IMG/VR virus record: IMGVR_UViG_2778261165_000021
Source: a virus
Lineage: Duplodnaviria; Heunggongvirae; Uroviricota; Caudoviricetes
Strand: one strand, 5' to 3'
Length of the DNA: 33,405 nt
Below the pieces are notes generated by a model. That model was not told where the DNA came from. It saw only the letters and a list, made by a program, of their open reading frames with translations, and made no database searches. Position 1 is the stretch's first letter, and each line of letters begins with the position of its first letter. Below, piece by piece: positions 2,887 through 33,074 of the stretch. A program made the position numbers and the translations under genes.

Positions 2887-3303
2887 ATGAACACAAAAGA
2901 AGAAGGCATTATCAACACATTAAAAAAAATATCAGAAGCGGAAGATGAAATGGCTAAAGATGCCGTGAAGCGTAGCCAACATATGGCAGCACTTCACGCA
3001 CTGACCATTGCAAAAATCACCGCTGACGCAGCCAAAATTATTGAGGAACAGAGCAAAGAAATCGACACTCTTAAAACACAGTCAACAGTTGCAGCCATGA
3101 ATCCGTCCAGCATTGGACGCTGCATTTATATTCTTGGTTCAGCAATGATGCCGCAATACACCATTATTGCCGAACTGCACGGCAAATACCTGATAACGCC
3201 TTACCACACAAAAGAGTCTGAGCTTCTGACAAATCTCCGCCTGATAGAACGCTCTCAAGCTGTATTCATTGATGACGCGCAACGTGCCGTATTTAACGCA
3301 TAG
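2887..3303 (+). CDS. Hypothetical protein (AT-rich moron-like gene)
   Basis: 138-aa ORF with GGAG-type RBS; markedly more AT-rich than flanking genes. No family recognised. Confidence 0.55.
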   Translation: MNTKEEGIINTLKKISEAEDEMAKDAVKRSQHMAALHALTIAKITADAAKIIEEQSKEIDTLKTQSTVAAMNPSSIGRCIYILGSAMMPQYTIIAELHGKYLITPYHTKESELLTNLRLIERSQAVFIDDAQRAVFNA

Positions 3304-4089: not shown

Positions 4090-4180
4090 GAAACCAGAAC
4101 ATGCACACACAAAAAAACCGCTTGCCATGCCGCAATCGGTCAGGTTACATTTCCGCTGCACCTCATAAAACGGGTGCCGG

Positions 4181-4366
4181 GATTCTCAACCCGATACAGA
4201 GCAAAGCGCATAACCGCGCCAGCGGTTTTTTTGTGCGTACTGTATTGCCACGTCTTTTTCGCGTCAGAATTATGGCGGGGCGTACGGGGCCGACTTCGGT
4301 CGGGCCGGATTCTTTGCTCTCCGGTGTTGAGAACCCTGTACGTCTCGCCACCCCGAGATTCTCAAC
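4181..4366. repeat. GATTCTCAAC direct repeat (4181-4190, 4357-4366) with inverted partner GTTGAGAA (4325-4332)
   Basis: Read directly in a roughly 320-bp non-coding stretch; the inverted pair can form an 8-bp stem around a 26-nt loop. Confidence 0.5.
4212..4232 (+). terminator. Candidate rho-independent terminator
   Basis: AACCGC-GCCA-GCGGTT stem-loop followed immediately by a T7 run; about 120 nt downstream of the 3790..4089 stop. Confidence 0.4.
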
Positions 4367-4411
4367 TCTGGATGGTGAGCTATTTCTATCACCGAGCAAA
4401 GAGGCCACACC

Positions 4412-4642
4412 ATGGCAAACCGCAAACAACAGCGCGCATACGCTGCGCGTCGTCACATCCAGACTGAAATCAACCGTAGACTTTTCCGCGCATCACGCGT
4501 CGCGCAAATCATGCACATCAATATGCTGCATGAGCGCAGCCACGCGCTATCGAACATCTATTCCGCCTCTGTTTTCAGCTATCTGGCGGATGATCTGCGC
4601 GAGCTGCAACAACTCTTCCAGCAGCAAAACAAACTCCATTAA
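4412..4642 (+). CDS. Hypothetical early protein
   Basis: 76-aa ORF, ATG at 4412 with AAAGAGG RBS 7 nt upstream; basic N-terminus. No family recognised. Confidence 0.5.
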   Translation: MANRKQQRAYAARRHIQTEINRRLFRASRVAQIMHINMLHERSHALSNIYSASVFSYLADDLRELQQLFQQQNKLH

Positions 4643-4714
4643 TTCCTGTTCCGGGCCTTTCCTGCACCTTGCGGCGGGAGGCCTTCGCACATCTGTAGTA
4701 AAGAGAATTGCAGC

Positions 4715-5104
4715 ATGATTGACGCTCATGACTTCACAAGATGGGTGCGCACACAGGACACCCGTCTGGCTCCCGTTCTTCAGGGATTATTTGATCTCTA
4801 CATCCGTGGTCGTGACAACAGAGCACGCACCACAAAACCGGAGAATGCAGACACCCTTTATTTCACAGTAGACGACTGCTACCGCGTGGACTTCACACCA
4901 CACGGGCTGGCGTTGCACTGCCTGACACCACACGGAGAATCACTGCTGGCGTATTACGACTCCCCGGCCTCCGTATTTGCGGCAATGCTGGCGCATCGCA
5001 CTGCTGGCGGGTGTGCCTCGCTGAGTGAATACACCGCTGAATTTAACCGCCTTTCTGCCCTCTTCTCGCAGGAGTGGCAGCGCGTGACGGGATACCAGCC
5101 ATGA
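4715..5104 (+). CDS. Hypothetical protein upstream of A
   Basis: 129-aa ORF with AAAGAG RBS; stop overlaps the A start (ATGA). Confidence 0.55.
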   Translation: MIDAHDFTRWVRTQDTRLAPVLQGLFDLYIRGRDNRARTTKPENADTLYFTVDDCYRVDFTPHGLALHCLTPHGESLLAYYDSPASVFAAMLAHRTAGGCASLSEYTAEFNRLSALFSQEWQRVTGYQP

Positions 5105-7941
5105 ATGAGTTTGCATGGAGCTGGAATGAACCACGGCCAGCCATTGATCCGGCCAGATTTACGGAGCACAGGCAGGAAACTGAAACCGACCTGCAACGCG
5201 CCATCCGTTACTACCTTGAGGCAGACAAAAAGGCTCTGGAAGAACAGGAAGCGAAGGAGGAAGCCTTTTTCGCACAATCCACCGTGGGTAAAAAACTCAT
5301 GGCATCCCTTGAGGAAGCCGGACAGCGTGAAAAGCTGGCACAAAGCATCATCAGCAAGCGTCAGGCAACAGAACAAGACCCGGTGGCCCGTGCTTTTGCC
5401 ACACTGAAGGTGCTTCCCGTTTATCTGCGTGAACCTCTGAGCCGCCACCTCTCTTTCCTGCGCAAAAAACAGGAAGCCGATCGCCAGAAAGGCAAAAAGA
5501 GCTGGCAGGCTGAACGCTACGCGCGCGGAACCCTGCGCAAAATATTCGAACGCCTGGACCGCACCGACCACCGCTGGCTGACACCGGGTTATCGCTCCCT
5601 TGCCGGACGCGAACGCCTGGATGATTTGCTTTACCTGCCGCAGCTCAACAAGCACCAGATACAGACGCTGGCCACCATGACGGCGGCGATGTTCAGCAGC
5701 ACCTTCGAAAAACTCTGCGATGGCTTTGGCGCGACCGATGGTGAGCTGACCATGGAGGTGGCACTGAAGGCGTATCAGATGCTGGCCCGCATGGTGTTAC
5801 ACCTGCACGCCATGCCTCCACATTATGACGCACTGACAACAGACAAAGACCGCAAGAACGAACCGGACACGGAACTGCTGCCGGGCGCAATCCTCCGCCT
5901 GACCTGTGCGGAATGGTGGAAACGCAAACTGTGGCTGTTACGTTGCGAGTGGCGGGAAGAACAACTCCGCGCCGCCTGTCTGGTTTCCAGAAAAACATCG
6001 CCCTATCTGAGCCAGGACGCGTTAAGCGAGTTTCGCGCACAGCGCGAGAAAACACGCGATTTCCTGAAAAGTTTCATGCTGGAAAACGAAGACGGGTTCA
6101 CGATTGATCTCGAGACGGTGTATTACGCGGGAGTAAGTAACCCGGTCCACCGTAAAGCAGAAATGATGGCCACCATGAAGGGGCTGGAACTTCTGGCCGA
6201 AGCCCGTGGCGACAGAGCGGTGTTTCTGACTGTCACCTGCCCGTCAAAATACCACGCCACAACAGAGAACGGTCATCCGAATCCCAAATGGAACGGGGCC
6301 ACCATGCGCGACTCCAGCGATTACCTGGTTAACACGTTTTTTGCGGCGGTCCGCAAAAAACTGAACCGCGATGGCCTGCGCTGGTATGGCATCCGCACGG
6401 TGGAGCCTCACCATGACGGCACCGTGCACTGGCATATGATGGTCTTTGCACATCCGGACGAGATTGAAACCATCGTGTCCCATGTCTGCGATATTGCCAT
6501 TCAGGAAGACCGCCACGAGCTGGGCGATGACATAACTCCGCGTTTTAAGGCTGAGTACGTAGACGGCTCAAAAGGCACGCCAACCAGCTACATCGCCACC
6601 TACATCGGAAAGAACCTGGACAGCCGCGCCGTGGATGGCATCGACCCGAAAACGGGCAAGCCACGCGTTGACCACGAAACCGGAAAATCAATGGCAGAGA
6701 GCGTGGAACGCGCCATCGGCTGGGCGCGCCTTCACCGGGTCCGCCAGTTCCAGTTCTTTGGCATTCCCTCTCGTCAGGTATGGCGTGAACTCCGCCGCCT
6801 TGCCAGCCAGATGGCACGCAACCCGGAAGGCCCACAACGGCTGAAGGATGATGCAATGGATGCGGTACTCGCTGCCGCTGATGCCGGGTGTTTTGCCACC
6901 TACATTGAGAAACAGGGCGGCGTACTTGTTCCACGCAAAGACTACCTGATTCGCACCGCCTACGACCTCGCAGATGAGCTGAACGATTACGGCGAGCAGA
7001 GTGTACAGATTTACGGGATCTGGTCGCCGCTCATCGGGGAGTCTTCCCGTGTGTGCACACATCCGGATAACTGGAAGCTGGTAAGACGTAAACCTGAAGC
7101 AGAAGACAGCGCCCGCGAAAATGGTTTTGACCTTCAGGGCGGCCCTGCCGCCCCTTGGACTCGTGGCAATAACTGTCCCCGTGTACAGGAAACGGACAAC
7201 AACGGGACAGAACAGCCGGAAGAACGGCCAGCGCCGTGGCCGCAGCTCCCTGACAGCGTTGATGTGGATGAATGGATGCGCTCACTGAAACGGCACGAAC
7301 GCCGGGCGCTGATGCGTTCGCTTCGTGACAAACAGGCAAAAAACAGCAGTGATGAAATGCAGAGCTGGACACAGAGCCGCAAACAGCAGCGGCCTTTGCC
7401 TGATAACCACGAATTACTCGCTAAAGAATGGCGGGAGTCTGCTGAATCTCTCGGCCTGCATATCGGTGAACAGCAGATGCAGCACCTGTTACGGGGCGGC
7501 AGTCTGTACGTTGACGGCAGCATCATTGCACCGCAGGGATTTGAAATTGTACGCAAACCGGATACCCGCCCGGACAGCCGAATCACGCAGCTCTGGCAGC
7601 GCCTGAGCCGTAATCATGGCGTAAGCAGCACGGAGATCCGCCATAACCCGGTCGCCAGCTATCTGGCACAGCTGGGGTCATCAGACCCTGAAGCCGCCGC
7701 ACGCCTGGCATCCACACTTCAGCAGGACCAGAACACCATGAAAACACCCGTTACCGTGCTTTCTGACATGCTGCGCGCCATCCGCGACGCAGAGCACGCA
7801 CAGAGAATCAGTGAAACCACTGAACGCGCCAGCCGCAAAGCAGACCTGCTGCGGGGTAGCCTGACCAGTGGAAACAAAAAACAGACAGAAACGGGATTCA
7901 CAAATCCCGTAAATGAGCAAAAAACGTGCCGCGATATATGA
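5101..7941 (+). CDS. A: Replication initiation endonuclease (P2 A-like, rolling-circle HUH family)
   Basis: 947 aa from ATG 5101 (track ORF 5074). HUH-type motif VHWHMMVFAH and paired catalytic tyrosines in SYIATYIGKN (YxxxY). Position after the early ORFs as in P2. Confidence 0.9.
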   Translation: MNEFAWSWNEPRPAIDPARFTEHRQETETDLQRAIRYYLEADKKALEEQEAKEEAFFAQSTVGKKLMASLEEAGQREKLAQSIISKRQATEQDPVARAFATLKVLPVYLREPLSRHLSFLRKKQEADRQKGKKSWQAERYARGTLRKIFERLDRTDHRWLTPGYRSLAGRERLDDLLYLPQLNKHQIQTLATMTAAMFSSTFEKLCDGFGATDGELTMEVALKAYQMLARMVLHLHAMPPHYDALTTDKDRKNEPDTELLPGAILRLTCAEWWKRKLWLLRCEWREEQLRAACLVSRKTSPYLSQDALSEFRAQREKTRDFLKSFMLENEDGFTIDLETVYYAGVSNPVHRKAEMMATMKGLELLAEARGDRAVFLTVTCPSKYHATTENGHPNPKWNGATMRDSSDYLVNTFFAAVRKKLNRDGLRWYGIRTVEPHHDGTVHWHMMVFAHPDEIETIVSHVCDIAIQEDRHELGDDITPRFKAEYVDGSKGTPTSYIATYIGKNLDSRAVDGIDPKTGKPRVDHETGKSMAESVERAIGWARLHRVRQFQFFGIPSRQVWRELRRLASQMARNPEGPQRLKDDAMDAVLAAADAGCFATYIEKQGGVLVPRKDYLIRTAYDLADELNDYGEQSVQIYGIWSPLIGESSRVCTHPDNWKLVRRKPEAEDSARENGFDLQGGPAAPWTRGNNCPRVQETDNNGTEQPEERPAPWPQLPDSVDVDEWMRSLKRHERRALMRSLRDKQAKNSSDEMQSWTQSRKQQRPLPDNHELLAKEWRESAESLGLHIGEQQMQHLLRGGSLYVDGSIIAPQGFEIVRKPDTRPDSRITQLWQRLSRNHGVSSTEIRHNPVASYLAQLGSSDPEAAARLASTLQQDQNTMKTPVTVLSDMLRAIRDAEHAQRISETTERASRKADLLRGSLTSGNKKQTETGFTNPVNEQKTCRDI

Positions 7942-32813: not shown

Positions 32814-33074
32814 ATGTTCCGTTGTCCGCTTTGTGGCGCATCTGCCCGTATCCGCACCAGTCGTTCGGAAAATGATTCAAACACCGTACGGAAAAAATAT
32901 TACCAGTGTAACAACCTGGAATGCGGCATAAGTTTCTCAACACTGGAAGCTTTCCATAAATTCACATCGAAACACGCCCCCGGCGTTCACTCTTCAGAAG
33001 GTATCCCGTGGCATGAGTTGCCAGCTTCACACAGGGGAAACAATCAGATGAGTTTGCCTTTATCTCAGAATTAA
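32814..33074 (+). CDS. ogr: Late gene transcription activator (Ogr/Delta-type zinc finger)
   Basis: MFRCPLCGASARIRTSR...YYQCNNLECG C4 zinc-finger signature matching P2 Ogr; AGGGAGG RBS. Confidence 0.85.
   Translation: MFRCPLCGASARIRTSRSENDSNTVRKKYYQCNNLECGISFSTLEAFHKFTSKHAPGVHSSEGIPWHELPASHRGNNQMSLPLSQN

Follow-up and report, generated by a model that had tools for sequence, protein, structure and literature searches.

In bacteriophages, RNA-based immunity of the "IsrK-C4" type has already been named and described for P4, P1, P7, N15 and some lambdoid prophages, IsrK corresponding to the seqA and C4 to the CI RNA of P4 (PMC3632133; PMC10111431). In P4, a constitutive promoter is located inside the eta gene, while eta itself is translated only from the upstream late promoter, and this translation prevents termination (PMC10111431). 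For the Gifsy-1 prophage, compensatory mutations confirmed the pairing of the middle part of IsrK with the downstream RNA, and STnc1160 was detected downstream as a stable RNA generated by processing. The details on P4 considered in this study originate from secondary summaries and from direct reading of the P4 sequence.

Here, a related locus was analyzed in a viral DNA stretch of 33,405 nucleotides (nt) (IMG/VR record IMGVR_UViG_2778261165_000021, referred to as the window). An earlier inspection of the letters (the sequence-only reading) had described a structured non-coding region at positions 4090-4411, featuring a terminator, a hairpin with a UUCG loop and short repeats. Our results indicate that positions 4101-4411 very probably represent an RNA immunity cassette of the P4/P1 type, residing in the early operon of a P88-like (Xuanwuvirus) Escherichia coli prophage and composed of an IsrK-like leader and a C4/CI-like antisense RNA, which would silence an epsilon-like gene and the replication gene A by pairing. 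The cassette is a further copy of the well-studied P1/P4-type system and no new kind of element. No literature linking C4 to P2-like phages was found.

Two RNA families in the early operon

The Rfam search of the window at curated thresholds yielded exactly two matches, both full-length, on the + strand and within 4090-4411. The isrK family (RF01394) was recognized at 4158-4232 with 62.8 bits (cut-off 50; model positions 1-77 of 77), and the C4 antisense RNA family (RF01695) at 4268-4355 with 78.5 bits (cut-off 45; model positions 1-87 of 87). The small regulatory RNA that had been considered as one option for this region was thereby borne out in the form of two known RNA genes. The model c4-a1b1 (RF03163), representing the P1-type upstream target element, reached only 15.9 bits in the window compared to a gathering score of 46.7. 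The upstream element is of the IsrK/P4 type, though it carries both target sites, a1 and b1. Matches to CRISPR-DR33, STnc410 and Hrs13 were far below their thresholds and were taken as chance, and a scan of the window for tRNA and tmRNA genes found none.

Folding, which had been proposed as a check, resulted in minimum-energy structures matching the Rfam folds for both RNAs. The C4-like RNA adopts a Y shape, in which a closing stem of 17 bp bears the UUCG hairpin and another hairpin whose loop comprises 12 nt (-47.6 kcal/mol; z = -4.9 on the + strand vs. -2.6 on the - strand), whereas the leader folds into two hairpins followed by the terminator (z = -3.1). The UUCG hairpin of the sequence-only reading, GGCCGACTTCGGTCGGGCC at 4288-4306, is present, but its stem comprises only 5 bp (CCGAC/GUCGG, 4290-4303), the G/C residues beside it being part of the closing stem and of the adjacent hairpin in the larger RNA. 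Covariance analysis across related phages, also suggested earlier, showed that the hairpin fold as well as the repeat pairings covary. Among 16 diverse cassettes, 99.3% of the positions in the C4 fold were paired, with compensatory changes in 15 of the 27 pairs; this level was reached by none of 500 shuffles, and shifted controls achieved only 35-46%. As deduced from the alignment to the annotated mature P1 c4 RNA, the mature C4-like RNA is predicted to extend from approximately 4274 to 4352 (~79 nt). C4 RNAs are stable products of ~77 nt, which RNase P releases from longer transcripts and which act as repressors in trans.

The leader is preceded by promoter-like hexamers (Table 1), the -10 hexamer ending 7 nt ahead of the start of the IsrK model. 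Such hexamers occur at the same position in all 18 cassettes compared, and in P1 they represent the annotated promoter P1c4; in P4, the hexamers upstream of the leader are presumably PLE. The stem-loop followed by T7 at 4212-4232 is present as described before (AACCGC-GCCA-GCGGTT and T7). At the sequence level, the IsrK-like RNA thus appears to possess its own upstream sigma-70 promoter and a 3' intrinsic terminator. A second promoter-like site at 4245-4273 was not adopted, as transcription from it would begin inside C4.

Six pairing sites and their covariation

The repeats noted in the sequence-only reading proved to be part of a larger network. The 10-mer GATTCTCAAC at 4181 and 4357 has its sole two copies in 33.4 kb at these positions (0.07 expected by chance), and the inverted copy GTTGAGAA exists as well, but it is placed at 4326-4333 and not at 4325-4332, i.e., one base off. 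A second repeat set had been overlooked, namely AGAGCAAAG at 4198 and GAGCAAAGA at 4394 with the inverted copy CTTTGCTCT at 4312. Following the P1 nomenclature of the GenBank record, the sites are named a1 and b1 in the leader, b' and a' in C4, and a2 and b2 behind it. This order (a-b / b'-a' / a-b) is the one required by antiparallel pairing. The C4 segments find perfect matches of 8 and 9 nt at 4183, 4198, 4359 and 4394. The Shine-Dalgarno sequence AAGAGG, located 7 nt ahead of ATG 4412, is occluded in the b':b2 duplex, for which an energy of -14.3 kcal/mol was predicted.

In a gapless alignment of the window with four P88-like phages, substitutions were concentrated in precisely the six sites, which change jointly and thereby yield four specificities among five near-identical cassettes. 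Each C4 of the 16 diverse cassettes features perfect matches of 7-8 nt to its own a1/a2 and of 5-10 nt to its own b1/b2, and the sites flanking it are a better fit than those of the other cassettes; in 20,000 permutations run for each of the four interactions, the observed value was never reached. Furthermore, the end of b2 is located 9-14 nt ahead of the downstream start codon in every cassette except that of Yersinia phage vB_YpM_39 (YpM39), in which the annotated start codon itself lies within b2.

A scan of IMG/VR provided 120 further P88-like loci, and covariation was evaluated on 42 distinct sequences. For a1:a' and b1:b', 94.5% of the positions were paired compared to 67.3% after shuffling, with 164 changes on both sides vs. 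45 expected; for a':a2 and b':b2, the corresponding values were 92.7% and 68.5%, and 158 vs. 46. The helix b1:b' (41-49:155-163) was 99.5% paired, with compensatory changes in seven of the nine pairs. At the level of sequence comparison, such joint change in all three copies of a site strongly supports pairing between RNAs.

The repeats had also been proposed to be protein-binding or replication-related. While their role as interaction sites holds, they are RNA-RNA pairing sites instead, because they reside in exposed loops or junctions of conserved folds, covary as complements and, in some pairs, are joined by G-U only. An operator array, iterons or a replication origin would agree with direct and inverted 8-10-mers clustering within 250 bp upstream of a replication gene; however, such DNA sites for a protein are extremely improbable here. 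All sites fall into defined single-stranded parts of two RNA families scoring above threshold, their copies are related as complements in the order given above, and the strand asymmetry in folding favors RNA of the + strand. Moreover, target copies differ (A vs. G) and yet pair via G-U, which accounts for 23 of 527 pairs; pairings kept only by this wobble argue for RNA pairing and against DNA-site identity.

Among 109 gapless copies of the cassette, five a-alleles and 11 b-alleles occurred in 16 combinations, and 107 copies were fully cognate. The allele pair of the window was found in 20 of the 109. The independent assortment of a- and b-alleles indicates recombination between a and b, and the allele set lends itself, as a compact series found in nature, to the study of heteroimmunity based on RNA. 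Two IMG/VR contigs of the P88-like group carry mismatched recombinants: in L021, a1 originates from another allele, and in L119, b' fits neither its own b1 nor its own b2. These two cassettes could be derepressed or defective. All 39 carriers of the window's C4 allele in IMG/VR are P88-like, and no satellite sharing its specificity was found among them; a scan with one genome per species gave no match to this allele. The a' sequence GTTGAGAA is identical in the window and in N15 (locus L009, C4 at 1584-1671), the b sequences being different. Elsewhere in the prophage, lone extra copies of the b core GAGCAAAG (3051-3058) and of the a core TTCTCAAC (32934-32941) were detected, neither with a partner site nearby; the count for the b core is within chance (~1.3 copies expected).

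Table 1. Coordinates of the cassette features and the downstream genes in the window.
Feature	Position	Strand	Description
Eta-like long open reading frame	4101-4718	+	205 codons; encloses the RNA cassette; ATG upstream of the internal promoter; TGA overlaps the next ATG (ATGA 4715-4718)
Putative anti-terminator arm	4105-4125	+	Left arm of a 21-nt inverted repeat; right arm 4218-4238 equals the terminator 3' half and U-tract; 19/21 complementary
Sigma-70 promoter-like site	4122-4151	+	TTGCCA, 18-nt spacer, TACATT
IsrK-like leader RNA (counterpart of the P4 seqA leader)	4158-4232	+	RF01394; hairpin 1 4158-4177, hairpin 2 4178-4193, intrinsic terminator
a1 target	4183-4190	+	TTCTCAAC; loop of IsrK hairpin 2; 8-nt perfect complement of a'; covaries with a'
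b1 target	4198-4206	+	AGAGCAAAG; single-stranded linker of the IsrK-like RNA; 9-nt perfect complement of b'
Intrinsic terminator	4212-4232	+	6-bp stem, GCCA loop, T7
C4/CI-like antisense RNA	4268-4355	+	RF01695
C4 hairpin 1	4290-4303	+	CCGAC-UUCG-GUCGG; compensatory changes in 4/5 pairs
b'	4312-4320	+	CTTTGCTCT; 12-nt loop of C4 hairpin 2; complements b1 and b2
a'	4326-4333	+	GTTGAGAA; unpaired junction strand of C4; complements a1 and a2
a2 target	4359-4366	+	TTCTCAAC; immediately 3' of C4
b2 target	4394-4403	+	GAGCAAAGA and one G-U pair; overlaps the Shine-Dalgarno sequence AAGAGG (4399-4404)
Epsilon-like "derepression protein" gene	4412-4642	+	76 aa; presumed direct C4 target
129-aa ORF	4715-5104	+	phrog_3237; ATGA overlaps with the long frame upstream and gene A downstream
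P2-type replication gene A	5101-7941	+	PF05840, 430 bits; start codon per RefSeq; presumed to be silenced via polarity

The enclosing frame and the proposed mechanism

The view that the region contains no plausible coding frame could not be maintained, since an open reading frame (ORF) of 205 codons at 4101-4718 covers the whole stretch. All five P88-like phages keep this frame open, as do 61 of the 62 distinct sequences from IMG/VR; the number of stop codons per frame across these 62 sequences is 1, 112 and 171. Among the 16 diverse cassettes, five have stop codons that close the corresponding frame within 8-40 codons. Synonymous and non-synonymous codon differences in the long ORF amounted to 2:29, 3:30 and 4:27 over the RNA part (4101-4411), and to 1:14, 2:12 and 3:39 where it overlaps the epsilon-like ORF; in this overlap, the epsilon frame itself showed 8:7, 8:6 and 17:27. 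A conserved small ORF explaining the region had been named beforehand as a competing possibility; on these sequence grounds, no conserved protein accounts for the region, and the amino-acid sequence of the long ORF is not conserved. Stop codons are nearly excluded from one frame while amino acids change freely, which suggests that the frame is kept open for the passage of ribosomes and not for its product.

It is very unlikely that the 205-aa ORF encodes a functional protein and that selection on this protein explains the conservation. The ORF is open in nearly all relatives, it was annotated as a coding sequence (CDS) in PhiR44_2 and 569R5 (in some records as "Ash family" or hypothetical protein), and it shows weak matches to PF10554 and to PHROG "regulator" families. 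However, the codon differences are mostly non-synonymous in both parts mentioned above, and substitutions track RNA pairing rather than codon structure. The match to PF10554 (Phage_ASH) reached only 19.3 bits and is thus under the cut-off of 26 bits, its span being that of the RNA genes. Likewise, no similarity was found to the C-terminal (Kil-like) part of P4 Eta, nor to Eta outside the part overlapping the RNA genes. Given the epsilon protein sequence, a stop-free overlapping frame is expected by chance with a probability of 0.40-0.65.

PF10554 has been used as an "epsilon (Ash)" marker in a survey of P4-like satellites (PMC8628076). In every ORF tested, the extent of this domain corresponded to the IsrK-C4 RNA genes (4146-4433 in the window; 8521-8330 in the P4 locus L005; 1494-1784 in the lambdoid locus L007). 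It matched the P4 "cI" ORF (59.7 bits), but neither the kil-sized 65-aa C-terminal part of Eta alone (L005, 8365-8168) nor epsilon, which belongs to PF25738. Since the extent of the domain equals that of the RNA genes and epsilon is not matched, the marker appears to detect the immunity cassette and eta and not epsilon, which is of relevance for annotation. Reading PF10554 as a purely spurious translation of RNA genes was dropped, given that the eta ORF of P4, which encloses CI, is genuine and translated. The PHROGs 995, 821 and 6928 ("transcriptional regulator") match the same span.

The presumed direct target of the C4-like RNA, the 76-aa ORF, matches PF25738 (Derepression) with 31.5 bits (cut-off 27; P4 epsilon itself 170 bits) and is covered by phrog_3688 over all 76 residues. 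BLASTP aligned it with P4 epsilon over 51 aa at 33% identity (E = 4e-9), and its RefSeq name is "derepression protein" (WP_000013472.1). Based on P1, P4 and Gifsy-1, the following sequence of events is proposed. The internal promoter would deliver constitutive, untranslated transcripts, which end at 4232 or read through and are then processed, as by RNase P in P1 and P4, to a stable RNA of ~79 nt. This C4-like RNA would pair with a2/b2 and block translation of the epsilon-like ORF, whereupon Rho-dependent polarity would silence the 129-aa ORF and the replication gene A. The sites a1/b1 would compete for C4, either in cis or on the short RNA, and may help or hinder repression. Transcripts from the early promoter would escape the terminator and C4 by translation through the cassette, as for P4 eta, and by means of the 21-nt arm. 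Finally, the allele-specific a and b sequences would enable each cassette to recognize its own mRNA only.

Positive control of the Gifsy-1 type would assign other roles to the same elements: the read-through mRNA would be kept silent by a cis fold (a1/b1 with b'/a'), the short IsrK-like RNA would activate it in trans, translation of a small ORF from the conserved AUG 4272, comparable to that of orf45, would be required for turning on the downstream genes, and the C4 part would mainly be an mRNA leader. Experimental data are available for the homologous Gifsy-1 locus, the cis duplex a1b1:b'a' was predicted at -31.4 kcal/mol, and AUG 4272 shares the frame of the long ORF. This alternative is nevertheless considered unlikely. 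The AUG frame is stopped in the five cassettes mentioned above, including P1, whereas fold and target sites are kept in all; the Y fold with its 15 compensatory pairs points to a stand-alone folded RNA; and RNase P would cut within AUG 4272, as judged from the alignment to P1. In addition, it overlaps with the antisense mechanism rather than contradicting it.

Within the antisense mechanism, the route by which early transcripts pass the cassette deserves separate consideration. ATG 4101 is located 21 nt upstream of the -35 hexamer (4122), so only early-promoter transcripts can translate the long frame, and the putative anti-terminator arm is likewise carried solely by transcripts starting upstream. 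In the minimum-energy fold of 4095-4245, pairing of the repeat displaces the terminator hairpin. The equilibrium probability of the terminator stem decreased from 0.80-0.94 to 0.00 when the RNA started at least 70 nt upstream, as calculated for four distinct P88-like phages; for other cassettes, the same calculation gave mixed results, with values of ~0 also in N15 and NAR688. All P88-like phages possess the arm, and the 12 other cassettes compared lack it. On the - strand, the 4105-4125 repeat segment also resembles a hairpin followed by T7.

A promoter-selective bypass, by which upstream early-promoter transcripts carrying the arm and ATG 4101 escape the cassette, is possible, albeit rather doubtful. 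The arm would pair with the 3' half of the terminator and its U-tract and thereby abolish the terminator. The 205-codon ORF would serve as a "transit" frame, whose translation and not whose product matters, with ribosomes crossing a1/b1, the terminator, C4 and a2/b2 and being passed on by ATGA coupling to the 129-aa ORF and then to gene A. Indirect evidence that translation of this frame could suppress termination is provided by the near-exclusion of stop codons from it and by the ATGA couplings at 4715 and 5101. If true, one DNA stretch gives rise to repressor RNAs from the internal promoter and to an immune-resistant mRNA from the early promoter, and the anti-terminator arm represents an addition to the known P4 eta mechanism that is specific for P2-like phages.

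Several points weigh against the interpretation as a P4/P1-type immunity cassette and its proposed operation. Promoter activity, termination efficiency, RNase P processing, RNA stability and repression are assigned by homology to the described systems. The identity of the epsilon-like protein to P4 epsilon is limited to the 33% stated above, and no icd- or kil-like gene is present between C4 and the anti-repressor, unlike in P1 (icd), P4 (kil) and N15. The reported roles of the upstream sites conflict, as P4 seqA is needed for immunity (PMC3632133), while IsrK of Gifsy-1 activates its downstream gene more than 100-fold in trans. Furthermore, some of the evidence for selection on the open frame is due to common descent, and both anti-terminator arms are almost invariant among 119 loci, so covariation is uninformative for them.

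Prophage setting and comparison with described systems

The window represents a P2-like prophage with an integrase, a cox-like gene and the P2 gpA replication gene, and its nearest phages are P88, PhiR44_2, 569R5 and Citrobacter phage Shae_phiSM, all of them Xuanwuvirus. Derepression proteins such as P4 epsilon are characterized by binding and inactivating a P2-type C repressor; in the window, a helix-turn-helix repressor of 105 aa is encoded at 1057-1374 on the - strand. The cassette would add a second level of control to prophages of a common family, directly ahead of the replication gene. Downstream of the epsilon-like ORF, genes are connected by ATGA stop/start overlaps (4715-4718 and 5101-5104); the 129-aa ORF showed no similarity to P4 ORF151. 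The 72 nt separating the epsilon-like from the 129-aa ORF (4643-4714) are near-invariant up to 4697, even in the Citrobacter phage with its diverged epsilon gene. In folding, this spacer forms a hairpin at ~4653-4684 and another one surrounding the start codon that follows, z amounting to -2.2 for the + strand and 0.55 for the - strand.

To a 631-bp query around the cassette, matching sequence was found in 1354 of 5426 complete E. coli genomes, and 104 records were at least 99% identical to it, including Shiga toxin-producing strains of O121 and O157. RefSeq leaves the stretch of the cassette unannotated, and in several phage records it is covered by proteins annotated as hypothetical, as "Ash family" or as over-long "antirepressor". 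Tandem isrK-C4 arrangements were also detected in N15, many Shiga toxin (Stx)/lambdoid phages, one Yersinia phage and one Klebsiella phage.

The N15 and lambdoid/Stx cassettes resemble the one studied here in the tandem of isrK and C4 and in the logic of the a and b sites, the Stx-phage cassettes sharing ~71% nucleotide identity with it. They differ in the downstream genes (Rha, Bro-N, icd-like), carry other b alleles and are devoid of the upstream anti-terminator arm. In several lambdoid phages, a CDS annotated as "antirepressor" or "transcriptional regulator" (383 aa; L007 1146-2297, L008 1141-2292, L010 1146-2304) runs through isrK and C4 and continues in frame into the true Rha-type gene just after b2; in sal3, the same span was annotated as two CDSs. 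Beside the cassettes of two relatives, matches to further Rfam families were encountered, namely sRNA-Xcc1 (79.6 bits; L012, 2523-2606) immediately upstream of another anti-repressor gene of phage phi191, and ryfA (134.6 bits; L013, 149-447, - strand) in Yersinia phage vB_YpM_39.

The isrK-orf45/STnc1160-anrP locus of Gifsy-1 is similar to the arrangement proposed for the window in encoding an IsrK RNA with its own promoter, a leaky terminator and, downstream, a stable processed RNA and an anti-repressor-like gene. However, Gifsy-1 is a lambdoid prophage, its downstream AnrP leads to AntQ, and the system was published as activation via translation of orf45.

The immI region of P1 and P7 shares with the window the C4 fold, the layout a1, b1 / b', a' / a2, b2 according to the P1 record, and the position of b2 over the ribosome-binding site of the first gene. 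The P1 c4 RNA scored 68.8 bits with the C4 model. Its upstream element reached 51 bits with c4-a1b1 and 35 bits with isrK, which is the reverse of the scores obtained for the window. As in the classic case of P1 and P7, heteroimmune alleles would arise by compensatory change among the window's relatives. The regulated genes in P1 are icd and ant, and its AUG frame closes after 14 codons.

A parallel layout was observed in P4, in which the same two Rfam models match in the same order and spacing (isrK on the seqA leader with 60.8 bits, C4 on the CI RNA with 74.9 bits). Both loci feature a terminated leader, a and b sites flanking the RNA, b2 on the Shine-Dalgarno sequence, and an epsilon gene followed by a replication gene. 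P4 eta, with 199 codons (L005, 8767-8168), encloses the internal promoter, as does the 205-codon ORF of the window. In contrast to the satellite P4, the host of the present cassette is a complete helper-type P2-like phage; its replication gene is P2 A instead of alpha, and the kil/icd-like coding part is missing, the epsilon-like ORF following directly after b2, within the long ORF and in a different frame. The specificity sequences of P4 (GTGAGAA and TTCACAGG) differ from those of the window, and the 21-nt anti-terminator-like arm is found in the window and not in P4. New features of the present locus are its P2-like, helper-type host, the presumed direct control of an epsilon homologue before gene A and its own allele set. 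The occurrence of an epsilon homologue and a P4-style cassette in phages of the helper type is relevant to the question of how regulatory parts are exchanged between satellites and helpers.

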